From an uncultured Muribaculaceae bacterium (GTDB taxonomy: Bacteria; Pseudomonadota; Alphaproteobacteria; Rs-D84), in contig OZ246409.1 of assembly GCA_965231035.1 (NCBI GenBank), positions 481,101 through 513,100 on the forward strand: a stretch of 32,000 bases of DNA, read 5' to 3'. Shown here piece by piece: positions 3,992 to 26,241 of the stretch. The number at the start of each line of letters is the position of its first letter. Position 1 is the stretch's first letter. The translations under genes and the position numbers were made by a program. The notes beneath the pieces are model-generated. The model searched no databases. It had not been told where the DNA came from and saw only the letters and a program-made list of their open reading frames with translations.

Positions 3992-4010
3992 AAATATAAA
4001 GCATTATAAT
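3981..4010 (+). promoter_or_regulatory. sigma70-like promoter for the AsmA-family gene
   Basis: TTCACA (3981-3986), 18-nt spacer, TATAAT (4005-4010). Lies 26 nt upstream of the TTG start, which has an AAGAGAG SD. Confidence 0.4.
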
Positions 4011-4035
4011 CAAATTACAAGCAAAGAGAGAATTT

Positions 4036-6519: not shown

Positions 6520-6869
6520 ATCACACGAATAAAGTTTCTGCAACATATAGGATCACCAAAAGCATTTAAATGATATTTTTTACCATTTCTGCGAACCAAA
6601 CAACATCCTTCGGTGTAAACATGTATGCCACGTTGATTATAAATTAGAATCCTGTCTGCACCTATTAAATCAGCACGTCTGCCACGAATAATTTTTACAA
6701 ATAAATCATAAAAACCTGATGGTTCGTCATTTTGATACGGGGCATATAATATTCCACCTTTCTTTACCAATCCACCCATATCATACTTATAGAAATTATG
6801 TTCCAGCACACAAACCTGGTAATAAGTCAGGTTTAAACGTTGCGATAAATCTGCAATTTGATTTCTCAC
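6516..6869 (-). CDS. hypothetical protein, Cys-rich C-terminus, no family recognised
   Basis: 117 aa, GTG start preceded by an AAAGAGAAAA purine tract. The C-terminal half contains GCC and ICC doublets. Its stop overlaps the convergent AsmA-family stop by 4 nt. Lies between the aspS terminator and the asmA-family gene. Confidence 0.45.
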   Translation of the reverse strand: MRNQIADLSQRLNLTYYQVCVLEHNFYKYDMGGLVKKGGILYAPYQNDEPSGFYDLFVKIIRGRRADLIGADRILIYNQRGIHVYTEGCCLVRRNGKKYHLNAFGDPICCRNFIRVI

Positions 6870-6936
6870 TCTGTTTTCTCTTTGATGTAAATTATATCGA
6901 AAAAACAGGTTGATATTTATAGGCTTGTATTCTTAC

Positions 6937-6964
6937 TAAAAAACCGCCATACAGGCGGTTTTTC
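6937..6964 (-). terminator. Rho-independent terminator after aspS (symmetric, could work in both directions)
   Basis: CCGCC (6944-6948) / ATACA loop / GGCGG (6954-6958). Flanked by an A-run on one side and a T-run on the other. Immediately downstream of the aspS stop. Confidence 0.7.
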
Positions 6965-8719
6965 TTAGTTCTTTTTTCTGACTTGGATATGAACCTCGCG
7001 CAGTTGTTTTTCTGTAACTTCGCGTGGGGCACCCAACATCAAATCTTGGCCACGTTGATTAGTTGGGAACAATACAACCTCGCGCAGATTTTCTGCCCCA
7101 GACAGCAACATTACCAATCTGTCGATTCCAAATGCACATCCGCCATGTGGTGGTGCACCATACTGGAACGCAGCATACATTCCGCCAAACTTTTCTTTGA
7201 CCACATCTTCGCCATATCCTGCAATTGCAAAAGCTTTTACCATTGTTTCAGGATTATAGTTGCGAAGACCACCACTGCATATTTCATTTCCATTCAAAAC
7301 CATATCAAATTGATTTGCTTTGATTGTCAATGGGTCGCCATCTAATGAACCCTTGGGCAAGCTGAATGGGTTATGTCCAAAATCAATTGTGCCGGTCTCT
7401 TCATTTAATTCGTACATTGGGAAATCTTCGACCCAACATAATCTGAATTCCTTTGGATCAATCAGATTCAAATCTTCACCCAACTTGTTACGCAATTTTC
7501 CTGCTGCTTTGGCTGCGATTTCAGCTTTGTCACATACAAAGAACAAAGATGCATTGTCACCTGCAATTTTGCGCAATTTTGCAATACGATCTGCATCTAA
7601 TTTCTTTGCGACTGGACCTTTGGCCTCTTCTGCAAAAATTATATATCCTAATCCGCCAAGTCCCAGCTCTTTGGTTGCAAACTCACCCAGCTTGTCAAAC
7701 CAAGAACGTGGCTGTGAAGCAGAATTTGGTGCAGGGATTGCGCGAACAACACTGCCACCTGCAACTGCATCAGCAAAGATTCCAAAATCAGACCCACGGA
7801 ATATTTCAGTAACATCAGAAATTTCAATCGGGTTACGCAAATCTGGTTTATCAGACCCATATTTCAACATTGCAGTATCAAATGGTATATGTGGTATTTC
7901 AGAACCGATTTTAGCGTCTGGGGCAAACTTTCTTATCATTTCAGGTATAATTTCATCACCAACAGCCTGGATATCGCGCAGATCAACAAATGACATTTCC
8001 AAATCCAATTGATAAAATTCCAATAATCTGTCTGCACGCAAATCTTCATCACGGAAACATGGCGCAATCTGAAAATAGCGATCAAATCCAGAAATCTGAA
8101 TCAACTGTTTGAACTGCTGTGGGGCCTGAGGTAACGCATAGAACATCCCATGATGATAACGGCTGGGGACGATATAATCGCGTGCACCTTCTGGGCTGCT
8201 GACGGTCAAAATAGGCGTTTGGAATTCTGAAAATCCCATATCCCACATTTTATCACGCAAGAATTTTATAACACTGTTACGGAACAATATATTTTTATGT
8301 AGTGATTCACGACGCAAATCAATATAACGGTATTTCAAACGCAAGTCTTCGCTGACACTGCCATCGTCACCAAATACTTGGAAAGGCAAAACATCTGAAT
8401 TGGTTAAAATTTCCCATGCGCTTGATTGGACTTCAATACTGCCGGTTGGAATTTTATCATTCACTGCTGATTTTTCGCGGGCTACAACCGTTCCAGTAAC
8501 CATAATTACAGATTCAGGACGCAATTTTTCCAAATTCGCATCGCCACCATTAAATACAATTTGTGTAATTCCATAGTTATCACGCAGGTCAATAAACAAC
8601 AAAGACCCATGGTCGCGTTTACGATGAACCCAACCTGATAAAACAACTGTTTCACCAACATTTTTTGTGTTCAGTTCACCACAAGTATGTGTACGATATT
8701 TAGATTTTAATGATAGCAT
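6965..8719 (-). CDS. aspS: aspartate--tRNA ligase (bacterial type)
   Basis: 584 aa. N-terminal OB fold (LSGWVHRKRDHGSLLFIDLRD), class II motif 2 FRDEDLRADR, motif 3 GGCAFGIDRL. Confidence 0.97.
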   Translation of the reverse strand: MLSLKSKYRTHTCGELNTKNVGETVVLSGWVHRKRDHGSLLFIDLRDNYGITQIVFNGGDANLEKLRPESVIMVTGTVVAREKSAVNDKIPTGSIEVQSSAWEILTNSDVLPFQVFGDDGSVSEDLRLKYRYIDLRRESLHKNILFRNSVIKFLRDKMWDMGFSEFQTPILTVSSPEGARDYIVPSRYHHGMFYALPQAPQQFKQLIQISGFDRYFQIAPCFRDEDLRADRLLEFYQLDLEMSFVDLRDIQAVGDEIIPEMIRKFAPDAKIGSEIPHIPFDTAMLKYGSDKPDLRNPIEISDVTEIFRGSDFGIFADAVAGGSVVRAIPAPNSASQPRSWFDKLGEFATKELGLGGLGYIIFAEEAKGPVAKKLDADRIAKLRKIAGDNASLFFVCDKAEIAAKAAGKLRNKLGEDLNLIDPKEFRLCWVEDFPMYELNEETGTIDFGHNPFSLPKGSLDGDPLTIKANQFDMVLNGNEICSGGLRNYNPETMVKAFAIAGYGEDVVKEKFGGMYAAFQYGAPPHGGCAFGIDRLVMLLSGAENLREVVLFPTNQRGQDLMLGAPREVTEKQLREVHIQVRKKN

Positions 8720-9187: not shown

Positions 9188-9204
9188 TTATGAATTTATA
9201 CTAT

Positions 9205-9233
9205 TTGTTTTGTTATCTAAAAAAAGATATAAT
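9205..9233 (+). promoter_or_regulatory. candidate promoter for the PagL-like gene (would give a leaderless or near-leaderless mRNA)
   Basis: TTGTTT (9205-9210), 17-nt spacer, TATAAT (9228-9233). Only 7 nt (TACCCAT, no SD) separate the -10 from ATG 9241. Confidence 0.35.
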
Positions 9234-9240
9234 TACCCAT

Positions 9241-9828
9241 ATGAAGAATTATATTTTCGCATTTTTACCACTTTTTATACTGGTATCACCAGCAATTGCT
9301 GATGATAACCCGTTTTTTGGAACCGCACGTAACCAAATTGCTGTGAATATCGGTCAGGGTTTTAATTCATTCAGTTTGATACCAACACCTGATATGCCAG
9401 TACCATTTAATATGATACAAATTCAGTATTCACAACCAACAGAATTCTTTCGTATGCCAGCCAGACGTTCGTTGAACGCAATTCAAACTATTGGTTATGG
9501 TAAGAAATATCAGTATACCGATTATGTTAAAACATTTGAATGGGATTGGACAAAGTATTCTGAACAAATCGCCTTGTTGTCCGAAGATGTTATACTTTAC
9601 AACACAACCAAGTTTTACTTTGGTGCTGGACTGGCCGTTGGTATCCAGGGTCAGGAAAACGAACGCGAAGGAACAAAATTTTTAACCGGATTTAAACTGC
9701 TTGCCGGATATAAGATTTCGGAAAAATTTAATTCAGAATTGTTTATGCAACATTTTTCAAACGGCAGCACTGATCCACAAAATTATTCTTATAATTTCTG
9801 GGGTTTGGGGGTTTCTTATAATTTCTAA
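9241..9828 (+). CDS. PagL-like lipid A 3-O-deacylase / acyloxyacyl hydrolase outer-membrane beta-barrel
   Basis: Signal peptide MKNYIFAFLPLFILVSPAIA from ATG 9241. The ORF-track start at 9190 overlaps the tRNA promoter. C-terminal catalytic-type motif HFSNG and terminal aromatic residues (GLGVSYNF). Confidence 0.6.
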   Translation: MKNYIFAFLPLFILVSPAIADDNPFFGTARNQIAVNIGQGFNSFSLIPTPDMPVPFNMIQIQYSQPTEFFRMPARRSLNAIQTIGYGKKYQYTDYVKTFEWDWTKYSEQIALLSEDVILYNTTKFYFGAGLAVGIQGQENEREGTKFLTGFKLLAGYKISEKFNSELFMQHFSNGSTDPQNYSYNFWGLGVSYNF

Positions 9829-11790: not shown

Positions 11791-14190
<2,400 letters not shown>

Positions 14191-14223
14191 TTAACTTCCT
14201 TTTGTTTTTCTTTCTTTTTTACC

Positions 14224-14251
14224 TGAAAAAGATAGCAATTTTTGGTATAAT
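14224..14251 (+). promoter_or_regulatory. candidate promoter with extended -10 for the RusA-like gene
   Basis: TGAAAA (14224-14229), 16-nt spacer, TGgTATAAT (14243-14251). An AAGGGG SD lies 6 nt before ATG 14297. Confidence 0.4.
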
Positions 14252-14296
14252 TAGCAAGTAAAAAGGCATAAAAAACACCATAAAAAGGGGTCTTAA

Positions 14297-14866
14297 ATGA
14301 AGTTTAAATTACTGTATTTCGGAGACGTTTTATCAAATCCAAAAAAGCGTGCCCAGCATATCGCTGATATTCGTATGCAATTTCATCCTCAGTTAAAAAA
14401 ATTGATTGAACACAGTCCTTGGAACAACCTTAGCAATTATATGATGCCTGATGCTAAAAAAAGTCCAATTATAACAAAGCATATCGGTGGGATTGATTGG
14501 AACCCTATAATTACACCAACATTAAAAATGATTGCAGAACTGGATATTCAGATGTTACATCCAGAAATTGTAGGAGTGGCCAGAACGGATGTTGATAACC
14601 GTGTAAAAACAATTATGGATGGTTTACGTTGTCCACAAAATGAACATGAAATTGGTGAAAACACACCTAAAAATATGGGTCCAATTTATACTCTTTTGGA
14701 TGACGATCACTTGGTTACAAAAATATCAGTTAATACAAGCCATTTATTATCAAAAGATCTTTTCAAAAATGTTTTGAACGGTGTCAATGAACCGGTCTTT
14801 ATGATGATTGATGTAAACGTTCGTGTGGTTGAAGGGACTTTGGATAATTTACCATTTATGGTTTAA
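14297..14866 (+). CDS. divergent RusA-like endonuclease-fold protein (hypothetical)
   Basis: 189 aa. RTDVDNRVKTIMDGL ... LLDDDHLV reproduces the RusA catalytic pattern DxDNxxKxxxDxL ... DDxxV. There is a roughly 20-aa insertion between the two halves and an extra N-terminal region of about 85 aa. Confidence 0.4.
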   Translation: MKFKLLYFGDVLSNPKKRAQHIADIRMQFHPQLKKLIEHSPWNNLSNYMMPDAKKSPIITKHIGGIDWNPIITPTLKMIAELDIQMLHPEIVGVARTDVDNRVKTIMDGLRCPQNEHEIGENTPKNMGPIYTLLDDDHLVTKISVNTSHLLSKDLFKNVLNGVNEPVFMMIDVNVRVVEGTLDNLPFMV

Positions 14867-14870
14867 TAAA

Positions 14871-14896
14871 AAACCGGCAAAATGCCGGTTTTTTTG
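14871..14896. terminator. bidirectional Rho-independent terminator shared by the RusA-like gene and the pilus-like operon
   Basis: AAAAA-ACCGGCA-AAA-TGCCGGT-TTTTTT. A perfect 7-bp stem with an A-run and a T-run, between two convergent stops. Confidence 0.75.
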
Positions 14897-15967
14897 TTAA
14901 GTTAATGCAGCTGTGATTTGATCCTGCATTTGGAATGTTCCGAATACAACCCAACCTATAATCAAAGAAATAAGTAAAACTCCAACACTATTTAAGGTAT
15001 TTGATATAGATTCCATTTTTCTGACTGATTCATCCAAATAATCATTTGCTATCTTGGAAAGATTTTGATCAAAGGAATTCATATCTGCGTAAATTGCCAA
15101 ATCACCTGCAATTTCATCGTTTGGAAAATTACGGCCTGTATTTGCCAGTGCAGTACCCAAATTATCACCGTTCGCAATAAAATGCAGTGTCAAGTTCAAT
15201 ATGTTTTTAAGATAACTTGAAGAGTTATCTGCTAACATTTTAATTGCCACAGGAACTGTACAGCCAGAAGCAACCATCGAAGACATAGACATTAACCAAC
15301 TAACAGAAACCTGGATTTTATACATATTCCAAGGGGGTAAACCATCAAACAAATTTCTAATTCTGCCAGACCAATTACCCAAACTGAACCATATAATAAT
15401 AATTGCACCAAAGAAAACAGTAACAAAAGCCGGCCAATATTGTGTCGAAAAATTCGCAACCCAAACCAAAGATGCAGCAGATCCACGCCATACAACTTCT
15501 GTTCCGGCTGCTTCGGTCAATGGTGGGACCAAATACATCCCCACCATTACGATAATTCCAATTGTCAATGCTAATAAAAATAATGGGTATGCCAATGCAG
15601 AAAATATTGCTCTTTTCATTTTTTGGCTACCATCTGTGACACGTGTAATATTATCCAAAGCAATTGATAATTTTGAAACATCACCCAATGTTAACAATAA
15701 AGTTTCTTCTGTTGGAACCCAGCCACGTGTAGCTTCGGGAAAAGATTGTCCACGTTCCAGATTCTTTTGCCACGCACGCATTAATATTGCAAAAGGCTCG
15801 TTAGGTTTAATACCTCCGCGGGATTCTATTTGTTCTATACGACCCAAAGCTTCCATCAAGGTAAAATCATTACGCAGTAAAGAAGACAGCTTACGATAAG
15901 TCGCCATTCTTTTTTCTGTATTTATTTTAAAAAGAAGTTTTGCATACAGCAAATCCAATTTTGACAT
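14897..15967 (-). CDS. type IV pilus / T2SS platform protein, GspF/PilC family (PilR/BfpE/TcpE-like)
   Basis: About 356 aa. Polytopic, with three hydrophobic segments (LAYPLFLLALTIGIIVMVGMYLV, YWPAFVTVFFGAIIIIWF, VGVLLISLIIGWVVFG). Size and position directly after the ATPase fit this family. ATG 15967 overlaps the ATPase stop (TGATG). Confidence 0.8.
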   Translation of the reverse strand: MSKLDLLYAKLLFKINTEKRMATYRKLSSLLRNDFTLMEALGRIEQIESRGGIKPNEPFAILMRAWQKNLERGQSFPEATRGWVPTEETLLLTLGDVSKLSIALDNITRVTDGSQKMKRAIFSALAYPLFLLALTIGIIVMVGMYLVPPLTEAAGTEVVWRGSAASLVWVANFSTQYWPAFVTVFFGAIIIIWFSLGNWSGRIRNLFDGLPPWNMYKIQVSVSWLMSMSSMVASGCTVPVAIKMLADNSSSYLKNILNLTLHFIANGDNLGTALANTGRNFPNDEIAGDLAIYADMNSFDQNLSKIANDYLDESVRKMESISNTLNSVGVLLISLIIGWVVFGTFQMQDQITAALT

Positions 15968-17598
15968 CAATAAACCCCTGGCTGATCAAGTAATCCGACC
16001 CAACGTTCCAACTCGTCAACACTGATTATTCCTTGTAACATTAATTCCATTGCTGATTCTTTCAAAGTGCGTCCATCCAGGTTTTCCAACCAATAGCGCG
16101 TTGCACCATTTGTATCACCAGATAATGCCAAGCGCAAAAACTCACTGTCTGTTATGATTATTTCGCCAGCCTTGATACGACCAATTGTGCCTGTGCCTTT
16201 ACATTCTTCGCATCCAGCACCACGGATATAAACCTGCTGTAACCCAATTTCACCAAAAGCATCCAGAACACGTTTGTATGCCGAGTGATTTGGGTGATCC
16301 ACTAATCTTTCGCGACAATACGGACAAACTTTTTTAAACAAACGCATAGAAACCAATCCACGCATCATTGTCTCATCTTTCAACTTAAACGCTTCAATAC
16401 CAATATCCAACAATCTTGTCAACGCCGCCATTGCAGAATTTGCATGCAAAGTTGTCCAAACATTATGACCAGAAAGTGCGCCCTTGACCGTTAATTGTGC
16501 CGCCGCCAAAGTTCTAATTTCACCAACCATCAGTGTATCAGGATCACTGCGTAATGCTGCTGCCAAGGCTTCTGTAAATTTTTCTTCACGTTGCTCTTCG
16601 TTTGAAGTATTTACAACCGGCATTTGGTGCGCACCAAATATTTTCTGTTCCGCAGGATCTTCAACAGTTATCATATTAATTTCGTAATTTCTTTCCTTTA
16701 ACATCATCGACATATTACGAACCAATGTTGTTGATTTACCAGAACTGGTTGGACCTGCAACAACCACTAAACCTGTTGGATATGCACGCAGACGCATTAA
16801 CAATCTTTGTTCATATTCATTAAATTCTTGTTCGGTTTTTATACCCTCAGATGGATTATCATACAACAAACGCAAAACAACATATCGACTGCCAAACGCA
16901 ATTGGATTGAATTGCATTCTGATACCGATTATTCCATCAGGCAGATATAAATCTTTGGTTCCTCGAAGTGGTGTGCGACCATCTTTTTGTGCGGCCTGGT
17001 ATTCATTCTGGGCATAGTTGGAATTTGAAATATCAGCAGATGCAAATGCGGCACGAACAAAAGATTCACCCCATTGTGAATTATATTCTGATACAGCCTG
17101 CATACTGCCATCTATACGAAAATAAATTGTGGTTTGATCTGCAACTTCGATATGAATATCTGATACTTTCTTGGCTGATGCACGTGCAATAATATCAACA
17201 AAATCTTTTTGCATCTGGTTATCATAATCCAATCTGGATTTGATATCACCGCCACCTATACGACTTTCATATGTTTTATATATACTGGATAATAATCCCA
17301 GATCAGAATAAAAAGGTGTCAGAACAAGACGATTTTCTTTCTTTAATAAATCCAAAAAAGCCAGCACACGACCATCATATCTGTGTGTTCTGGAAATTAT
17401 AACTTCGCCACCAGAAAAATAAGCAACCAAATTTTGTGTATCTTTGGACAGTTCTAACTCGGCAGCTGTGGCCGTCAACAAACGATTACCATCAGAAAAA
17501 AGAAAATCCACAATATCTTTATTTGGTGAGTTTTCTAATCCAGATGGAACAGATTGCTGAATGTTTTTTTTTGTTAAAATATTGTCTGGGGTATCCAT
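15967..17598 (-). CDS. type IV pilus / T2SS assembly ATPase, GspE/PilB family (BfpD / R64 PilQ-like size)
   Basis: 543 aa. Walker A GPTSSGKST, Asp box TVEDPAE, Walker B LMVGEIR, His box TLHANSA, tetracysteine motif CPYC...CEEC. Confidence 0.92.
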   Translation of the reverse strand: MDTPDNILTKKNIQQSVPSGLENSPNKDIVDFLFSDGNRLLTATAAELELSKDTQNLVAYFSGGEVIISRTHRYDGRVLAFLDLLKKENRLVLTPFYSDLGLLSSIYKTYESRIGGGDIKSRLDYDNQMQKDFVDIIARASAKKVSDIHIEVADQTTIYFRIDGSMQAVSEYNSQWGESFVRAAFASADISNSNYAQNEYQAAQKDGRTPLRGTKDLYLPDGIIGIRMQFNPIAFGSRYVVLRLLYDNPSEGIKTEQEFNEYEQRLLMRLRAYPTGLVVVAGPTSSGKSTTLVRNMSMMLKERNYEINMITVEDPAEQKIFGAHQMPVVNTSNEEQREEKFTEALAAALRSDPDTLMVGEIRTLAAAQLTVKGALSGHNVWTTLHANSAMAALTRLLDIGIEAFKLKDETMMRGLVSMRLFKKVCPYCRERLVDHPNHSAYKRVLDAFGEIGLQQVYIRGAGCEECKGTGTIGRIKAGEIIITDSEFLRLALSGDTNGATRYWLENLDGRTLKESAMELMLQGIISVDELERWVGLLDQPGVY

Positions 17599-17619
17599 AA
17601 TTTTCCCGTAAATTTTTAA

Positions 17620-18282
17620 TTATTTAGATTTACTGATATTCAAGTTTTCTGTAATATCATCCTTTTGAAAAACAACTCCATCATCCAAAGATATTGATTT
17701 TATTGTGTATCCATCCAAAACTTTGCCAACAGAAATCTTTTTATGCTGACCGTTTTCAAGGTTTTCCAATGTTGCCTGCAACTGATTATCTATGCCAATA
17801 ATATCTATCAGTTTATACATATCTGATATTGCTTCTTCTTTTTCTTCATCATCCTTGGCTCTTGCAACAGGTGCTGAGCTTTTTGTTTGATTATTATTTT
17901 GCACACTTGCGGATTGTTTTTGTTTTTCAATTCTGGCAGCTTCTTCTTCCAGTTTTGCTCTTTCATCTGCCAAGGCTTGTTTTTGTTGTTCTGTATTACT
18001 TGATAATGTTTCCATTTCCATACGCAGTTTTTCTTTCTCAGAAGCAAGTCTGTCCATATCCAGATCAATCTGTGCTTTTTCTTTCTGCAATTGCATAATT
18101 ACTTTTTGCTGTTCCAAATCTGTAATCTTTTGAAAAACAGATCCATCAGCATTGTAATCAGAAATAGCATCAGCTGACATTTTGTCAGCTTCCTGATTTT
18201 CATCCGCCATAACAGGTAAAGTAAAAGCACTAAACAATACAAACACTGTCAGCAAAAGATTTTTCATTATTTTATTTTGCAT
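17620..18282 (-). CDS. periplasmic coiled-coil protein with PilP/GspC-HR-like C-terminal domain (PilP/BfpU position)
   Basis: 220 aa. Signal peptide ending PVMA|DE, long coiled coil (QQKVIMQLQKEKAQIDLDMDRLASEKEKLRMEMETL...), low-complexity linker. C-terminal beta domain LIDIIGIDNQLQATLENLENGQHKKISVGKVLDGYTIKSISLDDGVVF. A strong GAGGTGA SD precedes ATG 18282. Confidence 0.45.
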   Translation of the reverse strand: MQNKIMKNLLLTVFVLFSAFTLPVMADENQEADKMSADAISDYNADGSVFQKITDLEQQKVIMQLQKEKAQIDLDMDRLASEKEKLRMEMETLSSNTEQQKQALADERAKLEEEAARIEKQKQSASVQNNNQTKSSAPVARAKDDEEKEEAISDMYKLIDIIGIDNQLQATLENLENGQHKKISVGKVLDGYTIKSISLDDGVVFQKDDITENLNISKSK

Positions 18283-19534
18283 AGATTATCACCTCATAGT
18301 TCCAAGTTCTGGATTCAGCATCCCAGGCACTTCGTGTCATATAGACACCGCTGAAATCGCTAAAAATTTTCATAAATTCTGGTGGTGTTAGTTTAGAAGA
18401 AGCACCTACTTCTACAATATTAACATCAACACTTTCTGTTTCATTAGAAATTGTATTCACAGAAATATTTGTATCCACAGACATATCTAGTTTTTGGAAA
18501 ACTGTATTAACATCTCGTGCAATTGTATTTGGATCTTTTTCTTCCTGTGATGCTTCTGTCTTTATTTCTGGTAATTTTGCACGAACAAAAATCTCTGATT
18601 CTGATTTTTCTTCAACAAAAGCACCAGGCATTAAATCAGTTGCAACTTCGTAAAAATCACCTAAATTACCAAAGCTACGTTTGAAAGTTATACTGGCATA
18701 ATTTTCATTACATTCTGCATTTGTCTGATTCCAACCTGGTACAGGCTGCATCAAAAAAGCAATCGCTTGATAGCATAAATCCGCGCGTTCTTTAACATTT
18801 GGCAAATTATCATACGGCATTTTTAAAGGTTCTGATTGTTTTACTTTTTGCGTATCAAATTTTTTATCCAGCTCTTCGTTTTTCTCTTCGATTTTACGTT
18901 TATACTCTTCTGCCAATATTGGGTTAACATTTGCAATCTGGGGTTTTGGTGTCAACATTTCACTTATAGGTTCTTTGAAAAATTCAGCAATACTAATCAA
19001 GAAAACCATGAACAAAATCAAAGAAAAGATATCTGCCTTTAAATGACTTATTGGTTGTAATGTTGCTTTGACATTTGCAAATACAATTTCTTCCAGTTTT
19101 TTCTCTATAGATCTTGGCATTCCCCACGCAGCAGGCGCAAAGAAAGATCCCCAATCAGGCATTGTTGATAATCTTGTATATTCTGATATTGCTTCGCTTT
19201 CCATATCAAATAAATGGTCTTCGACGATTATACCGTTACGAACAGCAACCAACCAAAACATATTATTTGTCTTGAAAACCGCCAGAAAAGAAGAAAATTC
19301 TGTAAAAGCTTCCATTACCTCGACCGCAGCGCTGGGCATACCAACACTGTGTCCTGAACGTCTGGAACCCAATCCAACCATCGCACGATATTCTGAATAT
19401 AAATTCAGCTTTTTATCAACATTTCTAGATAACTGATGCGCATAATTACGCCCAACAAAGCCAATCGCAACAGGTTGCCAAAACAAACCTGTGGCGTATT
19501 TTTTTTTATCCAAATATATGACTTGATCAACCAA
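18272..19534 (-). CDS. bitopic pilus-assembly protein, R64 PilO / BfpC-like (cytoplasmic domain - TM - periplasmic domain)
   Basis: N-terminal YATGLFWQP-type motif, one central TM (IFSLILFMVFLISIAEFF), about 420 aa, positioned immediately upstream of the PilP-like, ATPase and platform genes. The preferred start is TTG 19534, with a GAGAGAGA SD. The track start, TTG 19591, coincides with the -35 hexamer of the predicted promoter for this gene. Confidence 0.5.
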   Translation of the reverse strand: MVDQVIYLDKKKYATGLFWQPVAIGFVGRNYAHQLSRNVDKKLNLYSEYRAMVGLGSRRSGHSVGMPSAAVEVMEAFTEFSSFLAVFKTNNMFWLVAVRNGIIVEDHLFDMESEAISEYTRLSTMPDWGSFFAPAAWGMPRSIEKKLEEIVFANVKATLQPISHLKADIFSLILFMVFLISIAEFFKEPISEMLTPKPQIANVNPILAEEYKRKIEEKNEELDKKFDTQKVKQSEPLKMPYDNLPNVKERADLCYQAIAFLMQPVPGWNQTNAECNENYASITFKRSFGNLGDFYEVATDLMPGAFVEEKSESEIFVRAKLPEIKTEASQEEKDPNTIARDVNTVFQKLDMSVDTNISVNTISNETESVDVNIVEVGASSKLTPPEFMKIFSDFSGVYMTRSAWDAESRTWNYEVIIYAK

Positions 19535-19561
19535 ATTATGTCTCTCTCTGGTATTTGTATG

Positions 19562-19591
19562 ATTATAACACAAAAGCAAAATAAATAGCAA
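19562..19591 (-). promoter_or_regulatory. sigma70-like promoter with extended -10 for the four-gene pilus-like operon
   Basis: On the minus strand: TTGCTA (19591-19586), 18-nt spacer, TGTTATAAT (19570-19562). Confidence 0.45.
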
Positions 19592-19632
19592 ACACAGAAT
19601 AGCTTGTTTACCGGCTTTTTAACAATATTAAA

Positions 19633-19654
19633 AAGGGACGAAAATTCATCCCTT
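19633..19654 (-). terminator. weak hairpin terminator candidate after the lipoprotein gene
   Basis: On the minus strand: AAGGGA-(10-nt loop)-TCCCTT followed by TTTAATATT. The stem is only 6 bp and the loop is large. Confidence 0.3.
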
Positions 19655-19675
19655 TATTTTGTATTAAAAATTGCT

Positions 19676-20023
19676 TTATTTATTTGTTTGAACAAAACGT
19701 GGGTTTGGACAATCATAAACATTGGCAGTCAGTATAAATGCACGTTCTGGGCCAAATATTACCCATTCATTTGGACGTGTTCTTTGACTGGTTACCCAAT
19801 AAGCGTTTCCAGGTCTGGATTGATCTGCAATTCTATTTTCCAAATATCTACGAGCGTCGTCAGCATCATAAACCGAAACCTCGGATTCTATTTTATAAAG
19901 ATACACACAACCATTTGGTTCTGAATCCAATTTTACCAGATATTCACTGCCGTTTTGGTTTTTAACAAATCCCCCACAGCCAGCCAAAGCCAGTACAAAG
20001 GAAAAAATAGCTATTTTTTTCAT
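19676..20023 (-). CDS. small lipoprotein of unknown function
   Basis: Lipobox FVLALAG|C after MKKIAIFS. ATG 20023 has a GGGG SD; the alternative ATG 20035 lies 2 nt after the lpxC stop. Confidence 0.6.
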   Translation of the reverse strand: MKKIAIFSFVLALAGCGGFVKNQNGSEYLVKLDSEPNGCVYLYKIESEVSVYDADDARRYLENRIADQSRPGNAYWVTSQRTRPNEWVIFGPERAFILTANVYDCPNPRFVQTNK

Positions 20024-20037
20024 TTTAAACCCCATTT

Positions 20038-20976
20038 TTATTCTGGTTTTATTATATCATAATTATTTGAATCACTGAACAGTTTTTTCAAAACTAAATT
20101 ATTCAGTGCATGTCCGCTTTTATATGCTTCTATTTTACCAAAAACAAAACCACCAGATGTAAACATATCGCCCAGTAAATCAACTAATTGATGACGAACA
20201 AATTCATCTGGCCATTTCAGTTTATTTATTGTTCCATCACCTTTATCATTTAATGCGATTACATTATTTTCATTTGCTCCTCTGGCCATTCCCTTAGATT
20301 TCAGATATTCCCATTCAGAATATCTTCCAAATGTTCTGGCTGCAGAGATTTCTGCCTTGAAAACATTCACTGATTTTTTTGTTCCATCAAATAAAAATTC
20401 AAAACTTTGGCGACCTATGATTTTGTCAGGATAATCAAAAGTAGCATTTATTTTTAACCCTTCGGAAAATGGTGACAATTTTATAAACCCATTATTTTTT
20501 CTTCCCAACAGCCAGTCATGTGCCAAAACCTTTAATCTTGATATTATTGATAACTGTTTCATAACTTCTGATTTTTTAATAACAATCTCTTTTTTAACAA
20601 TAATTTTTTGCAATTTTTTTCCAACTACTTGGTGCTTGGAAAATATTTCTAAAAATTCTTTTGCACTGCCGTCCAAGATTGGTGTTTCTGGACCATCAAT
20701 TTCTATTATTGCACTGTCCACACCAGAAATAAACAGCGCAGCCATCAAATGTTCAATTGTTTGAACATGTGCGCCATTCAGTTTTCCAATTGTTGTATTT
20801 CTGAATTTTGTTTCCCCAACATTGTCATATCTTGCAGGAATAAGTCCACTGCCTTTAATATCAACACGTTTGAAAAATATTCCATATTTTGCAGATGGTT
20901 TTATTTTGATTTTTACTGGTGTTCCAGAATGAATTCCAACCCCAGAAATTTTTATTTCATCTTTAAATGATGCCAT
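20038..20976 (-). CDS. lpxC: UDP-3-O-acyl-N-acetylglucosamine deacetylase
   Basis: 312 aa. TIEHLMAAL and SGHALNN motifs. Overlaps lpxK by 14 nt. Confidence 0.93.
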   Translation of the reverse strand: MASFKDEIKISGVGIHSGTPVKIKIKPSAKYGIFFKRVDIKGSGLIPARYDNVGETKFRNTTIGKLNGAHVQTIEHLMAALFISGVDSAIIEIDGPETPILDGSAKEFLEIFSKHQVVGKKLQKIIVKKEIVIKKSEVMKQLSIISRLKVLAHDWLLGRKNNGFIKLSPFSEGLKINATFDYPDKIIGRQSFEFLFDGTKKSVNVFKAEISAARTFGRYSEWEYLKSKGMARGANENNVIALNDKGDGTINKLKWPDEFVRHQLVDLLGDMFTSGGFVFGKIEAYKSGHALNNLVLKKLFSDSNNYDIIKPE

Positions 20977-21871
20977 TTGTTTTTCCTTTTAACCATGCCC
21001 AAAAAGCCGGTTCTATTGTTGTTTCCAGTTTTGCAACTTTGATTTTTTTCTGAATATCTGATGGTAATCTGACCCAATCTTTTTCAGTTGTTACCAAATC
21101 AGCATTTTCTTTTCTTGCCAATGAAAATAATTTATCTAAATCTGATTTTTTATAATTATAATGATCTGGGAATTTTTTAACTATTTCTGCCCGTGGCGAC
21201 AAACTATCAAAAAACTTTTGCGGATATCCAATTCCTGCAAAAGCAATTATCTTATTTTTAACCTTTGGCAAAATCGTTTTATTTGTTGCATAAAAAACAG
21301 GCTTGCCATAAAACTTATGTTTTAATTTCTGTTTTACACTCTTTATTATTATTACAGCATCAGCACGTTTTATTGCAAAAATAGGTTCACGTAACGGACC
21401 CGCAGGTAAAACAAAACCATTTCCAACACCAATATTTTCATCAAATACAATTATTGATAAATCTTTTTTTATGGTCGGATTTTGAAATCCATCATCCATA
21501 ACTATTGGTGTTTTTGATTTTTGTTTATTTAACAAAACTATATTTTTCTTACGGCTGCCAACATAGACATCTATGCCAGCTTTTTGAAGCATTTTTGCCT
21601 CGTCCCCTGATTGTAAATTCTTATTATTTTTTTTATAACCACGCATAACAACTGGCGCGTTTAAAAACTTTGCAACTTCCATAACTATCGGTGTTTTTCC
21701 AACACCACCTGCCAAAATATTTCCAATACAAATTACCGGTCTTTTTGAAGCTTTTTGCCAAAAAAGCCGGTAAAAATAAATGATCTTACTTGCAATATAA
21801 TAAACCACTGCAAACGGCAACAACAGGTATGCCCATAAGTTTTTTCTTAAAAACCATTCTGGGGTTTTCAT
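20963..21871 (-). CDS. lpxK: tetraacyldisaccharide 4'-kinase
   Basis: 302 aa. N-terminal TM and P-loop GNILAGGVGKTP. Confidence 0.9.
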   Translation of the reverse strand: MKTPEWFLRKNLWAYLLLPFAVVYYIASKIIYFYRLFWQKASKRPVICIGNILAGGVGKTPIVMEVAKFLNAPVVMRGYKKNNKNLQSGDEAKMLQKAGIDVYVGSRKKNIVLLNKQKSKTPIVMDDGFQNPTIKKDLSIIVFDENIGVGNGFVLPAGPLREPIFAIKRADAVIIIKSVKQKLKHKFYGKPVFYATNKTILPKVKNKIIAFAGIGYPQKFFDSLSPRAEIVKKFPDHYNYKKSDLDKLFSLARKENADLVTTEKDWVRLPSDIQKKIKVAKLETTIEPAFWAWLKGKTNGII

Positions 21872-22632
21872 TTCTTTTTATTTTCGCGTTTGTGCTTTTT
21901 ATACTCACGTGCAGTTTGATCTTGTTCCACCACTGGCAGATTAAATTCAGCATCCATACGACGTACTTGATTAACCATAAAATCTTCAAGTTTTTTACGT
22001 GCTATTTCAAAATCTTCTTTGCTTATTTCTGGGTCAATAAAAATAGGTTGACCAAATTCACAGGTTAGTTTTGAAAATGGTTTCGCAACCAAATATCTAT
22101 CCCATCTGTCTTGGAACCAAGCCCGAGAACAAGAATAACATACAGGAATAATTGGTGCACCAGTCATTTTTGCAAAATACAGGGCACCTTCTTGTAAACG
22201 CAACGATGGACCACCAGGTCCGTCAGGTGAAAGGCTTAGAACATTTCCACCGGCCCTTAATTTTTTAACACCTTGACGCAAAACAGATATTCCACCTTCG
22301 GAAGTGCTGCCATAAATAGGTTTCAGACCAAACAGTCTTTGCAACTTCGCCATCATTCTTCCATCACGATGACGGCTGGATATAGCATAACCACGAATTC
22401 CATAACGTCTTACAATTGGTGATAACATCATGCTGCGACCATGCCAGAATATAAATATTGAAGGTTTTCTGCGATATTCATTGAATATTTTACGACCTGT
22501 TATTTTTTTCCAACTGGTATAAAAAACAAACCAAATTGCAGTAGCCATTAAAACTGCAACTACCCATTGCATAAAAGGTAATTTTAGAATTGGCTCCCAA
22601 AAAGTTTTCCAAATTTTTCTGAACGTTTTCAT
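21868..22632 (-). CDS. DUF374 domain protein (lysophospholipid acyltransferase-like, typically linked to kdtA/lpxK)
   Basis: 254 aa. N-terminal TM. Motifs FWHGR, SRHRDG, SPDGPGGP. 4-nt overlap with lpxK. Confidence 0.75.
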   Translation of the reverse strand: MKTFRKIWKTFWEPILKLPFMQWVVAVLMATAIWFVFYTSWKKITGRKIFNEYRRKPSIFIFWHGRSMMLSPIVRRYGIRGYAISSRHRDGRMMAKLQRLFGLKPIYGSTSEGGISVLRQGVKKLRAGGNVLSLSPDGPGGPSLRLQEGALYFAKMTGAPIIPVCYSCSRAWFQDRWDRYLVAKPFSKLTCEFGQPIFIDPEISKEDFEIARKKLEDFMVNQVRRMDAEFNLPVVEQDQTAREYKKHKRENKKK

Positions 22633-22865: not shown

Positions 22866-23495
22866 TTAATCATAAACCATACATTGTTTTATTCGGTCGT
22901 TGCTGCTGTTTTCGTCCACTTGTTTATTACGGATTTCTTGCTCGGCCTGTATTTTCTGATTAATTAATATTAAGTCTGGATGTTCTTGCATTTTTTTATT
23001 AAGTAGATCCAAAGCACCATCTATTTGGCTTTCATCGCTGACAAATACAGGCATTATCGAATTGGCAGCAGAATACACAGATTTTATTATCTTTTCTTGG
23101 TAATTATCTATTACAGATAAATATGCGCGTATATGTTCGTCTTCATGCGCCAAAACCGCGTTATATGCACAAGATTCTGGAATATGACTTGAATCAATTT
23201 TAACCAAGAAATCACTGTAACCGATTGTTGCATGGACCGATTTCAAACTGATACAAAAACCATCTTCAATAGATGTTGTATCACCTATAATATCATAATT
23301 TTCATCCAAGGTCGCAATCACATCACCATGCAATAAATCCATTGGTTTTAACGGCTGCACAACTTCTTTGGTCCAATCTGGCGTTTCTAATTCTATTTTT
23401 GGATTTAATTTATAAGACAAACAATCAACATCATCTGCCCATGCAGACAATGAGAAAATAACAAAAAGTAAAGAGCAAACGAAAACTTTTTTCAT
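22866..23495 (-). CDS. secreted HExxH protein, possibly DUF922/COG5661-type predicted Zn protease
   Basis: 209 aa. Signal peptide ending SAWA|DD. Motif LAHEDEHIRAY (HExxH) after a Cys-containing beta-rich half. Helical C-terminus. Confidence 0.4.
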   Translation of the reverse strand: MKKVFVCSLLFVIFSLSAWADDVDCLSYKLNPKIELETPDWTKEVVQPLKPMDLLHGDVIATLDENYDIIGDTTSIEDGFCISLKSVHATIGYSDFLVKIDSSHIPESCAYNAVLAHEDEHIRAYLSVIDNYQEKIIKSVYSAANSIMPVFVSDESQIDGALDLLNKKMQEHPDLILINQKIQAEQEIRNKQVDENSSNDRIKQCMVYD

Positions 23496-23501
23496 AGGTT
23501 T

Positions 23502-23531
23502 ATTATACTAGAAATAATACAAATTCTACAA
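23502..23531 (-). promoter_or_regulatory. candidate internal promoter for the HExxH gene (near-leaderless)
   Basis: On the minus strand: TTGTAG (23531-23526), 18-nt spacer, TATAAT (23507-23502). Only 6 nt (AAACCT, no SD) precede ATG 23495. Confidence 0.3.
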
Positions 23532-23534
23532 AAA

Positions 23535-25943
23535 CTATTCTGTTACACCCTGTTTACGAAGGTATTCAGCAACAAAGTTGTTTCCATATTGTTTATATAA
23601 ATCTTCGGCCAATAATACAGAAGATCTGCCAGATTCAAACAATCTCAACAAATTACCTAATCCACCAAGTTCAGTGTTTAAAATCACAGATTCTCCGTTT
23701 ACTGGGCGTGACAGCAAGACCGCACGTTTCAAGTTTGGATATGCTTTACCTTGAATAAACGCCATTTCCAAAGGATTCAAATTCCAATACTGATAATCGT
23801 TTGCATCGGCAGCTGGGTTACGGAAGAACATAACCGTTTGTGCTTGACCACGAACTACATCGCCTATATTTAATTTATCAAGAACATTTGCGCGTTGAAA
23901 TGATACCATATACGCTTGTCTATTCTTACGACCTTCTTGTAATCCGACAACAAAATTATCGCGAAACATTTTGTTTTCCAACATAGGTGCTGTTTCGTCA
24001 ATCATAATCAAGCTAGGATTTCCACCGCTGACAGTTGTATTGTTTATTCTGTGTAGAATATAAGAAATAACAGCCGGAGCCAATGTTTCATCTTGTAATA
24101 TTTCTGTAAAATCAAATGTTGTCAGTCTGGATTTTAAATCCAAAGTGTCTGAATCTTCATTAAATATCTGACCATACTGCAATGGATCAACCCATTTTTT
24201 TATTTCAGCACGCATTTTACCATCTGATGAAAAACAACTTTCCCACAGGTTTTTCAACTGTCTATTTTCATTTGATAAATAATCAAAATTCACAGATACA
24301 GCACGCGCGATTTCATCTTCTGACTGTGGATCGTTTTGCCCAGAAATCATTGCAAACCAACGACGAAGAAATGCACGGTTTGCAACAGAATCTTCCATTT
24401 TTAAAGGATTTAAATGTGCCTCAAAATTCATTCCTTCGGATTTTTCTTTGCCTTGCATAGTTACATATTTTCCACCAACAGAAAGTGTAAATATTTCTGC
24501 ACCTTTATTTCTATCAAAGAAGAATGCTTTCAATTTTGGATGACGTAAAGATTGTGCGATTAGGAAAGAAAATAATGTTGTTTTACCGCTTCCTGTTGGA
24601 CCAATGGTCAAAGTATGTCCGACCGCGGCTGGTTTATCAGAAATATGGAATTGAAATTGGTATGGTGTTCCCTGGGCGGTTGGAAAAACAACCAATGGTC
24701 CTGCACCCCAATCACAATTTTCAACACCGCGAGGAGTATTTGACATAGGAATACTGATAGCTGCTGTTTTTGAAAGCATTTTGAAACTGCGTGGAAAAAC
24801 ATCAAAACCTGGAATTTGTGCAAACCAAGAAACTTTGGATGCGAAATTTTCTATAATCGGTGATATACCAAACCCGGCACAAATTTTTTTAAATTCTTCT
24901 ATGTTTTTTTGCAAAGAATCTTCTGTTTCGCCAAACAAAACAAACAATGGATAATAATTTATTAAACTCTGTGTGCCGCTGATATTTTCATCCATAGCGT
25001 TTTCAGCTTCATATATTTGTGTTTCAGTAACATTTTCATTTTGTTCCGTAGTTGATCTTCTTTGACGAATAACAGTATCTATGGCTGTTGTTCCCATTAT
25101 TTTAAAAGCATTCATACAAACCATTTCACATTGAATAGTTGTTACAGAATTAAAAAATTCTTCATCCAGAAAATCTGGTGAAACCTTGAACGAGGCTGTT
25201 GCTGAAAAAGATTGCTTTGAACCACTGGTAGATTTGATTAAACCATTACTTAAAAATTCTACACTATCAACAGTTATTAGTTCTGTAACTTTTTGATCAC
25301 ACTTTTGTGGTTTTGGTTTTGTTATCGGTGATAATATTCGACCCATTAATTTTGCCATATTTTCAGAATTATCATTCTTTAATAAACTTGGTCGATAAGC
25401 AGCCAAAATAGACTCCAGGTAACTGCTGTATTGTTTTAACCTCTCGTTGGCCTTTTGTCCAGAAACAGAAATTATAACATAGTAATTATTCGTGAAAATC
25501 TTTAATCCTTGGTCGCGCCAGTTATCATATATTTTTTGTAATACAGGTTGATCAAATTCATAATCTGTTTTTTCTTCTGCAAAATCACGTATTGTGAAAA
25601 ATCTCATCGTTACGTTAGGATCACGAATCTGATTAAATAATTGTGTTCTTAAATCCAAGAATTGTTCACGAGTTTTATCATCTTGCATACTTGTTTGGAC
25701 ACCTTCTAATTTATATGCACAAATAACAGATCCATCAGTTAAATTAATTGTATTATCGGTATTTACAGATTTAAAAGGTAAATATTGTGAATATTTTTTA
25801 TAACCAAATTTTGGGAATACTAGAACTGTTAATGTTGGGATATATAACATCATTATAACAAAAACAAAAATTACTGCCATAACCAGAATAACCAAAGTTA
25901 TAGGAAAGCCGCCTCCAACAAAATATTCAAAAAAGTTTTTCAT
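23535..25943 (-). CDS. virB4: type IV secretion system ATPase VirB4/TrbE family
   Basis: 802 aa. Walker A GPTGSGKTT, Walker B LIMIDETA. Hydrophobic N-terminal extension (ITLVILVMAVIFVFVIMMLYIPTLTVLVF). Starts 1 nt after the virB3 stop. Confidence 0.9.
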   Translation of the reverse strand: MKNFFEYFVGGGFPITLVILVMAVIFVFVIMMLYIPTLTVLVFPKFGYKKYSQYLPFKSVNTDNTINLTDGSVICAYKLEGVQTSMQDDKTREQFLDLRTQLFNQIRDPNVTMRFFTIRDFAEEKTDYEFDQPVLQKIYDNWRDQGLKIFTNNYYVIISVSGQKANERLKQYSSYLESILAAYRPSLLKNDNSENMAKLMGRILSPITKPKPQKCDQKVTELITVDSVEFLSNGLIKSTSGSKQSFSATASFKVSPDFLDEEFFNSVTTIQCEMVCMNAFKIMGTTAIDTVIRQRRSTTEQNENVTETQIYEAENAMDENISGTQSLINYYPLFVLFGETEDSLQKNIEEFKKICAGFGISPIIENFASKVSWFAQIPGFDVFPRSFKMLSKTAAISIPMSNTPRGVENCDWGAGPLVVFPTAQGTPYQFQFHISDKPAAVGHTLTIGPTGSGKTTLFSFLIAQSLRHPKLKAFFFDRNKGAEIFTLSVGGKYVTMQGKEKSEGMNFEAHLNPLKMEDSVANRAFLRRWFAMISGQNDPQSEDEIARAVSVNFDYLSNENRQLKNLWESCFSSDGKMRAEIKKWVDPLQYGQIFNEDSDTLDLKSRLTTFDFTEILQDETLAPAVISYILHRINNTTVSGGNPSLIMIDETAPMLENKMFRDNFVVGLQEGRKNRQAYMVSFQRANVLDKLNIGDVVRGQAQTVMFFRNPAADANDYQYWNLNPLEMAFIQGKAYPNLKRAVLLSRPVNGESVILNTELGGLGNLLRLFESGRSSVLLAEDLYKQYGNNFVAEYLRKQGVTE

Positions 25944-25944
25944 T

Positions 25945-26241
25945 TTATGCTTTCAATCCCTTTGGTATTCTTGCTTTGAAAAGTTGTATTTTAGATGAAA
26001 TAATTTGTGCTAATTGTGGTTCTTGTTTTGAAAAACCAGCAATTATTGTATGTGTTATTATTACAGATATTAAGAAAATTAAAGGATCTGCACTGGATCT
26101 ACCGCCTGAAACTATTAAACTACCTATAAAAATAATTATAAAAATTATAAATTGTACAGCAAAATTAACTACCGCCAAAGAATACGGTACATAAAATATT
26201 CGCGATGGATTGGCTAAGGCTTTTAAAACCTGCTGTCTCAT
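25945..26241 (-). CDS. virB3: type IV secretion system protein VirB3/TrbD family
   Basis: 98 aa. LKALANPSRIFYVPYSLAVVNF motif followed by two TM helices. AGGGAG SD. Confidence 0.8.
   Translation of the reverse strand: MRQQVLKALANPSRIFYVPYSLAVVNFAVQFIIFIIIFIGSLIVSGGRSSADPLIFLISVIITHTIIAGFSKQEPQLAQIISSKIQLFKARIPKGLKA

Follow-up and report, generated by a model that had tools for sequence, protein, structure and literature searches.

A four-gene operon of the Rs-D84 lineage as the probable inner-membrane part of a dispersed type IVb pilus

A tight operon of four genes is situated on the minus strand of the 32-kb window analysed here (32,000 nucleotides of contig OZ246409.1, from an uncultured bacterium of the lineage Rs-D84), where the list of open reading frames (ORFs) places it at positions 14897-19534. 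Very probably these genes encode the inner-membrane assembly part of a chromosomal, vertically inherited and multi-locus type IVb (T4b) pilus of the PilO2 variant in Rs-D84. An earlier reading of this DNA, made from the sequence only, had compared the unit with the pilO-pilP-pilQ-pilR and bfpC-bfpU-bfpD-bfpE cores, and this comparison was supported by a gene order like that of plasmid T4b clusters and by the fold of the PilO protein. The same reading had taken the unit for a self-contained and perhaps repurposed motor. This view was given up since the secretin and its partner were found at other loci in Rs-D84 and pilins in Enterousia-type genomes. The window comprises all DNA of the organism itself that was covered; the evidence for partner genes beyond it comes from loci of relatives.

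Rs-D84 is the GTDB order of Candidatus Enterousia; it consists of gut bacteria whose genomes are smaller than 1 Mb and for which a dependence on partner cells is predicted (PMC12306168). The same genome survey suggested that contact to the partner cell is made through unknown membrane proteins. In the published literature we found no account of T4b pili in the Rs-D84/Enterousia group. The gene identities as such are already known, NCBI naming the orthologues PilO2. What is new, in a modest sense, is that a scattered T4b system is strongly conserved and seems to form a core feature of Rs-D84.

The operon and its four products

The genes and the signals bordering them are the following (window positions):
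18272-19534, minus strand: pilO2/bfpC-family gene (pilO) with a TTG start; 420 amino acids (aa), putative PilO2-type bitopic inner-membrane protein
17620-18282, minus strand: pilP-family gene (pilP); 220 aa, 11-nt overlap with the pilO stop
15967-17598, minus strand: pilQ/bfpD-type assembly ATPase gene (pilQ; GspE/PilB superfamily); 543 aa
14897-15970, minus strand: pilR/bfpE-type platform gene (pilR; GspF/PilC family); 357 aa, 4-nt overlap with the ATPase stop
19562-19591, minus strand: putative sigma-70-like promoter upstream of pilO (TTGCTA, 18 nt spacer, TG-TATAAT), assigned by consensus match alone
14871-14896, both strands: bidirectional intrinsic-terminator-like hairpin, common to pilR and a convergent 189-aa ORF
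19632-19655, minus strand: terminator-like hairpin that ends the lpxK-lpxC-lipoprotein unit and parts it from the pil operon

The 420-aa protein is predicted to consist of a cytoplasmic actin-like N-terminal domain, one transmembrane segment (approximately residues 165-185) and a periplasmic C-terminal domain. Its database homologues (n=913) carry the NCBI name 'type 4b pilus protein PilO2' and a precomputed PF06864 assignment. The window protein itself gave no Pfam match; PF06864 was matched by 8 of 10 PilO orthologues. Searches of the PDB sequences with a single PilO or PilP sequence returned no match, and a PilO family profile detected BfpC (3VHJ, E=1.9e-10) and PilO2Bp (4BYZ/4BZ0, E=1.3e-6). 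The AlphaFold (AF2) model of the protein reached a predicted local distance difference test (pLDDT) score of 91. With this model, whose N-terminal domain superposes on the matches, Foldseek retrieved 4BYZ (E=8.5e-10, target-normalised TM-score 0.71), 3VHJ (target-normalised TM-score 0.81) and also 4BZ0, at a sequence identity to BfpC of only ~17-20%. The structural comparison with BfpC that had been proposed earlier for this protein, then taken as 439 aa long, thus gave a clear fold match. Since an actin-like cytoplasmic fold is the defining trait of the PilO2Bp/BfpC family (PMC3984277), the modelled fold identifies the 420-aa protein as a member of this family.

For the 220-aa protein the earlier label 'PilP-like' proved justified, as it matched TIGR03021 (pilP_fam) above the curated cutoff (36.1 bits, cutoff 34.65, E=1e-8). 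The same model was matched by 10 of the 11 aligned PilP orthologues and analogues. The protein has a Sec signal peptide, a long coiled coil at approximately residues 48-129 and a linker of low complexity, and it ends in a conserved small domain that is a putative beta-domain. In a single-sequence AF2 model the coiled coil was confident; the C-terminal domain had a pLDDT below 50, its fold not being resolved, and is conserved in the orthologue alignment. Within the pilP coding region, at positions 18172-18190, there is a perfect inverted repeat of 8 bp (AGCTGACA aaa TGTCAGCT), which was scored as terminator-like on both strands.

The ATPase matches PF00437 (E=9e-63), and its motifs are intact: Walker A (GPTSSGKS), Asp box, Walker B (DPDTLMVGEIR) and His box. 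It also contains two CxxC pairs (CPYC...CEEC), the zinc motif of assembly ATPases, and a conserved N-terminal extension of ~125 aa. The closest plasmid matches of the ATPase (31-37% identity in tblastn) sit within T4b clusters. The platform protein has three hydrophobic (transmembrane) segments and matches PF00482 (T2SSF) in two stretches (E=2e-23); its identity to plasmid T4b platforms is 29-34%. As a whole, the window proteins are only 22-34% identical to plasmid proteins in blastp, and up to 37% in tblastn.

The longest frame of pilO comprises positions 18272-19591 and would encode 439 aa. Translation almost certainly begins at the TTG at 19534 and yields a protein of 420 aa, because all orthologues have ~420 aa and an identical 420-aa protein is found in the database (P0001). 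In addition, the 439-aa reading is disfavoured because the extension would overlap the promoter-like site at 19591-19562. A Shine-Dalgarno-like run, GAGAGAGA, precedes the TTG start. From the sizes proposed earlier, 220 and 543 aa stand, 420-439 aa is settled as 420, and the platform protein has 357 instead of 356 aa. That all four ORFs are intact and co-oriented was borne out by the ORF list and by the motif check.

The promoter-like site agrees with the consensus in 10 of 12 positions and has the extended TG, the frequency of such sites across the region being not above that in shuffled sequence. The hairpin at 14871-14896 has predicted energies of -15.8 kcal/mol on one strand and -17.7 kcal/mol on the other (z = -4.7 and -4.6 against shuffles), and the hairpin at 19632-19655 has -13.0 kcal/mol (z = -4.0 against shuffles). 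The consensus match and the z values of -4.0 to -4.7 agree with the earlier proposal that promoter and hairpin bracket the unit. The G+C content of the operon is the same as that of its flanks.

Conservation of the operon and location of the partner genes

The best 120 of the 913 PilO relatives were all at least 53% identical to the window protein and came from metagenome-assembled genomes (MAGs) with the label Alphaproteobacteria or Rickettsiales. When species-representative genomes were scanned, they provided 80 loci, of which many bear the name Candidatus Enterousia. The nearest genome relatives of the window are Zodletone spring MAGs with a PilO identity of 71-73%. Across 92 loci pilO, pilP, pilQ and pilR are unseparated wherever the contig extends far enough. 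Identity to the window proteins amounts to 78-91% for PilQ, 63-69% for PilR, 52-73% for PilO and 45-60% for PilP, in comparison to 83-85% for GyrB; the identity of PilQ to outgroups is 72-74%. Judged by these identities the ATPase appears about as strongly conserved as GyrB.

In the outgroups, which have a PilO identity of 27-36%, the genes for a TcpQ-domain protein, secretin, PilO, PilP and ATPase form one block (L084, L090 and L092), in which the platform gene is also included in L084 and L090. The block of L090 is followed by gyrB-aspS-asmA, the same genes as in the window. Because of this shared neighbourhood we consider the window operon to be the orthologous locus and the arrangement with tcpQ-secretin upstream of pilO to be the older one. 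The sequence-only reading had named, as an outcome that would speak against it, a complete T4b locus from which the unit was simply split off. At the level of the lineage this is what was found, the outgroup genes tcpQ-secretin-pilOPQR being contiguous at the syntenic gyrB/aspS/asmA position. In L090 two asmA-like genes, one by uvrB and the other by aspS, flank tcpQ-secretin-pilOPQR; in the window (1991-8719) gyrB...aspS-asmA-uvrB form one run. It is a speculative thought that the loss of tcpQ-secretin from the locus may have involved the asmA paralogues.

Within the window neither a secretin nor TcpQ nor an A24 prepilin peptidase was detected by tblastn and Pfam searches, and among its ORFs regex scans revealed none that carries a class III signal peptide. 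The earlier statement that the window lacks pilin, secretin and prepilin peptidase is therefore correct with respect to tblastn, Pfam and motif scans. Using the L084 secretin as query, ~60% identical orthologues of 542 aa were found in more than 100 protein clusters. Contigs of 886,885, 515,092 and 327,652 bp bear such orthologues, and the same sizes occur among the Rs-D84 contigs bearing pilO. In GCA_964313715.1 one contig of 886,885 bp bears both, with tcpQ-secretin at ~582-584.6 kb and pilOPQR at ~455.6-460.2 kb, ~122 kb apart. In the closest relative, Zod_Metabat.497 (PilO identity 73%), pilO is found on JAFGMU010000036.1 and tcpQ-secretin on JAFGMU010000010.1.

Metagenomes were scanned with an alignment of secretins, which yielded 147 relatives; the best 80 of these were examined. 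The TcpQ-domain partner (PF10671) was paired with the secretin in 76 of these 80 loci, and pilOPQR lay at most 10 kb from the secretin in one (L168), as it also did in L040 among the genome loci. Across the group the tcpQ-secretin pair is retained at ~60-67% identity. The secretins carry a lipobox, and their best family is TIGR02520 (PilN type IVB secretin, E=3.5e-73).

The tcpQ-secretin pair is situated ~6-8 kb from dprA-dnaA (L087, L177), in a gene order that is kept from the Zodletone MAG to Enterousia, and beyond dnaA, at a distance of ~10 kb, the pilin is located (L175). As the secretin pair and the pilin flank the dnaA region, both pilus loci are close to dnaA. In L087 a secreted protein of 1,112 aa rich in Cys, Thr, Gly and Ser (12212-15550) and two smaller Cys-rich paralogues (5555-6978) flank tcpQ-secretin. 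The large Cys-rich protein was considered as a conserved substrate and rejected, its homologues being present in just 7 fetched loci; by this distribution the Cys-rich proteins appear to be variable surface proteins and not fixed partners.

A motif scan of the fetched loci identified pilin genes in the Enterousia-type loci L033, L070, L081, L116, L146, L171 and L175. The predicted pilins have 152-158 aa, an invariant leader junction ESG/RS[LM]IE (the slash marks the junction; G-1/E+5), a hydrophobic N-terminal helix and a C-terminal Cys pair. The major pilin has ~154 aa, of which ~148 aa would remain in the mature form; the leader comprises 5-9 aa and Arg is at position +1. Typically, the pilin is an orphan gene adjoining uvrC. 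A pilin profile detected at least 6,831 database relatives, some of which NCBI names prepilin-type or type II secretion system proteins. The contig of one pilin relative has 591,085 bp, the same size as that of a secretin match. Moreover, three adjacent ORFs of 405-451 aa with pilin-like N-termini were found in L070 (2023-5896, minus strand) and L081 (2002-5869, minus strand). Their N-termini read RG/NVLVE, RG/ASITE and RG/NFLLQ, and they gave no family match. By their size these ORFs recall T4b minor pilins or tip adhesins (TcpB, PilV).

Proposed working of the pilus and rival explanations

In the T4b pilus proposed here a hexameric PilQ-type ATPase would turn the PilR platform, which would pull processed pilins from the inner membrane and add them to the base of the fibre. 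PilO2 would anchor the ATPase via its cytoplasmic actin-like domain and reach the periplasm with its C-terminal domain. The coiled coil of PilP would span the periplasm, and with its C-terminal beta-domain PilP would dock to the N-terminal domain of the secretin, a PilN-type lipoprotein that would work with a TcpQ/PilL-like partner. The secretin pair, the major pilin of ~154 aa and the large minor pilins would be encoded at other loci, as presumably would a prepilin peptidase. In the ancestor tcpQ-secretin would have stood directly upstream of pilO, until a rearrangement split the pair from pilOPQR in Rs-D84. We infer the docking and energy-coupling steps from work on PilO2Bp/BfpC (PMC3984277) and from the knowledge of type IV filaments (PMC6668835).

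The likely role of the pilus would be attachment to a partner or host cell, which we favour because the genomes are reduced and auxotrophic. DNA uptake or the secretion of a colonisation factor are possible extra roles. With regard to DNA uptake, dprA is situated near the secretin locus, and the nucleotide auxotroph Liberibacter forms a precedent for uptake that depends on a pilus (PMC8513845).

Several observations weigh against a complete T4b pilus in the organism of the window. The pilin is small and has a short leader, which places it nearer to a type IVa (T4a) pilin or a pseudopilin of a type II secretion system (T2SS) than to a classical T4b pilin, and the pilins matched no pilin model of NCBIfam or Pfam. 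They were seen in Enterousia-type genomes only, whereas the window belongs to a Zodletone-like sublineage. With 247 bits the secretin stays below the 288-bit equivalog cutoff of TIGR02520, and the window's own contig of 558,416 bp is not among the best 80 of the 147 metagenome secretin relatives. No prepilin peptidase was detected in ~2.8 Mb of fetched loci by tblastn with the A24 peptidase of an E. coli plasmid T4b cluster, by a GxGD-K motif scan, which matched PlsY alone, by clustering of polytopic ORFs or by Pfam searches of neighbours. Prepilin peptidases can serve more than one system (PMC6668835). Finally, the published genome survey gives type IV pilus genes for UBA9783 alone and none for Rs-D84 (PMC12306168).

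We considered three alternatives to the T4b pilus. First, the machine could be complete but serve chiefly for type II-like secretion or as a short pseudopilus, exporting a colonisation factor or adhesin instead of forming a long pilus for adhesion or motility. We regard this as unlikely. The small pilin with its short leader and the NCBI name 'type II secretion system protein' of some pilins would suit such a device; however, the large pilin-like ORFs have the size of T4b tip or initiator minor pilins. No PilT-like retraction ATPase was found in the fetched loci, as would be consistent with secretion, and some T4b systems, TCP (toxin-coregulated pilus) and CFA/III, are known to secrete proteins and form a precedent. 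Variable Cys-rich secreted proteins do adjoin the secretin in some genomes, but such a neighbour was found in 7 loci only. The accessory set, comprising TcpQ, a PilN-type lipoprotein secretin, PilO2 and PilP, is that of T4b systems and not GspC/L/M, and the T2SS equivalog models scored far under their cutoffs (215 versus 630 bits for GspE, TIGR02533; 49 versus 424 bits for GspF, TIGR02120).

Second, the operon could be an autonomous inner-membrane motor whose partners were lost and which was repurposed, for example with the VirB-type system 4 kb away or with another envelope machine. This is very improbable. It would explain that the partner genes are absent from the window, but the tcpQ-secretin pair is kept at the identity given above, lies on the same chromosome in GCA_964313715.1 and is present in the closest relative; that partners are missing from 32 kb of sequence says little in favour of a new machine. 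Genes virB3-virB4 are near the operon both in the window and in L002, yet this adjacency is lost in L001, which speaks against a linkage. Against the peptidase not found in the fetched loci stand the pilins and large minor pilins that are retained in Enterousia-type genomes, and the PilP C-terminal domain, which would dock on a secretin, is conserved.

Third, it is hardly credible that the operon is the decaying, non-functional remnant of a conjugative thin pilus (R64/PAPI-1 type) which was acquired from a plasmid or an integrative and conjugative element (ICE): the closest characterised PilO2 clusters are indeed on plasmids and ICEs and the cluster is locally incomplete, but all examined loci have the four ORFs conserved and undamaged, the ATPase seems to be about as conserved as GyrB, the housekeeping synteny is stable and the G+C content is even, relaxase, integrase and other mobile-element genes do not flank the operon, and genomes below 1 Mb seldom keep dead operons of 4.7 kb.

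Relation to known systems and neighbouring genes

The plasmid T4b clusters of E. coli and Bosea (L093, L094) are arranged as TcpQ-secretin-PilO2-(PilP)-ATPase-platform, followed by a PilT-like ATPase. The E. coli plasmid cluster also includes A24 peptidase and transglycosylase genes and is preceded by pilin genes, and in Bosea a PilV gene is situated downstream. The Rs-D84 system is most readily compared with the PilO2 variants of R64, PAPI-1 and Tfp7 of B. pseudomallei. The core order (TcpQ/PilL-like protein, PilN-type secretin, PilO2, PilP, ATPase, platform), as seen in the outgroup block, is the same, and the likeness extends to the PilO N-terminal domain with the fold of PilO2Bp (PMC3984277), to the TIGR03021 match of PilP and to TIGR02520 as best match of the secretin. 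In contrast to the R64-type systems, that of Rs-D84 is chromosomal, vertically inherited in a reduced genome, spread over at least 3 loci and unlinked to conjugation genes. Furthermore, downstream of the Rs-D84 platform gene there is neither a PilT-like ATPase nor an A24 peptidase nor a transglycosylase, the pilin is small with its leader of 5-9 aa and Arg at +1, and the identity to the plasmid proteins is low.

The bfpC-bfpU-bfpD-bfpE genes of the bundle-forming pilus (BFP) of enteropathogenic E. coli have the same order of a bitopic actin-fold protein, a small periplasmic protein, an ATPase and a platform, and the cytoplasmic domain of BfpC (3VHJ) is the top match to PilO by structure (TM-score 0.81) as well as by profile (E=1.9e-10). 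BFP is a single plasmid operon that includes the pilin, the secretin BfpB, the lipoprotein BfpG, the peptidase BfpP and the retraction ATPase BfpF. With the TCP of Vibrio cholerae the Rs-D84 system shares a TcpQ-domain protein (PF10671) together with a secretin, pilin-like proteins of the size of TcpB and no retraction ATPase seen. TCP is encoded by a single operon of a pathogenicity island, which begins with the pilin and ends with the peptidase, whereas the Rs-D84 genes are dispersed and the major pilin resembles T4a pilins in size and leader.

The T2SS proteins GspL-GspC-GspE-GspF offer a further likeness, comprising an actin-like bitopic anchor of the ATPase, a periplasmic beta-domain directed to the secretin, a zinc-binding GspE-type ATPase and a platform. 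The difference is that no GspC, GspL or GspM families were detected with Pfam and NCBIfam, and that the Rs-D84 secretin is a PilN-type lipoprotein with TcpQ. T4a systems (pilMNOPQ, pilBCD, pilA apart) are likewise multi-locus, chromosomal and vertically inherited, but PilM, PilN and PilO of the T4a type were not found in the operon, whose components are T4b-type. The PilB equivalog TIGR02538 scored 199 bits against a cutoff of 676. From Tad/Flp (type IVc) systems the operon differs by a GspE/PilB-type ATPase with tetracysteine motif and N-terminal extension and by having just one platform gene, which contains two T2SSF repeats; family search and signal-peptide scan revealed no Flp-like pilin ORF in the window. 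By these family scores the operon is not assignable to T2SS, T4a or Tad.

T4b pili are normally mobile single-locus accessories of plasmids, ICEs and pathogenicity islands. The described T4b systems usually hold the pilins within one locus (PMC6668835); from these Rs-D84 differs by its multi-locus chromosomal organisation, the small pilin with short leader, no retraction ATPase seen and no peptidase located. Multi-locus organisation has been linked to low horizontal transfer (Denise et al. 2019, PMC6668835). The Rs-D84 genes suggest that a T4b system can turn multi-locus and vertically inherited, which fits this link. Tentatively, and with more doubt than confidence, we propose that the T4b pilus became fixed as a core, dispersed and strongly conserved organelle of the Rs-D84/Enterousia order and is the main device to engage the host or partner, by which these bacteria would attach and perhaps also acquire DNA or nutrients. 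The latter role is suggested because these bacteria are without nucleotide and amino-acid biosynthesis. The pili of Saccharibacteria, Bdellovibrio and Liberibacter would be analogues of such a core organelle. Rs-D84/Enterousia are common in animal and human guts and uncultured, and the pilus machine represents a testable candidate for their contact organelle.

Two genes border the operon closely. A 119-aa lipoprotein is encoded directly after lpxC (19676-20035, minus strand) and was found in 78 loci, always with lpxC. Its assignment as a BfpG/PilM-like part was tried and rejected, as it is absent from 8 loci with intact upstream region where pilO has other neighbours; likely it is tied to the outer membrane or lipopolysaccharide and not to the pilus. 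The suspicion of the sequence-only reading that the lipoprotein goes with lpxC and not with pilO is supported by this co-occurrence across loci, which together with the hairpin and the promoter-like site also agrees with separate transcription units. On the other side a conserved ORF of 189 aa (14297-14866, plus strand) is convergent with pilR and remains with gyrB where the synteny is interrupted, for example in L056. It had been labelled 'RusA-like', for which searches of Pfam, NCBIfam, PHROGs and PDB sequences gave no support, the ORF having no match in any of these. From their distribution neither the lipoprotein nor the 189-aa ORF appears to belong to the pil unit.

Further upstream, at 22866-26241 on the minus strand, virB3 (98 aa), virB4 (802 aa) and a gene for a signal-peptide protein of 209 aa are located, with no other type IV secretion genes nearby. 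This trio is also present in L002, and the arrangement resembles the scattered vir genes of the Rickettsiales. An Rfam scan of the window detected three tRNAs and nothing else. A PagL-like lipid A deacylase gene (9190-9828, plus strand) is present in the window, as are, within 20038-22632 on the minus strand, lpxC, lpxK and a gene for a DUF374 protein; a very small genome thus retains genes for making and remodelling lipid A. An ORF of 513 aa at 48-1589 (plus strand) combines an FtsA-like region of actin fold (PF14450, residues 113-245, with a weak PilM_2 match) and a complete ribulose-phosphate 3-epimerase domain (PF00834, residues 303-496); it could have arisen by gene fusion or by the wrong joining of two genes.

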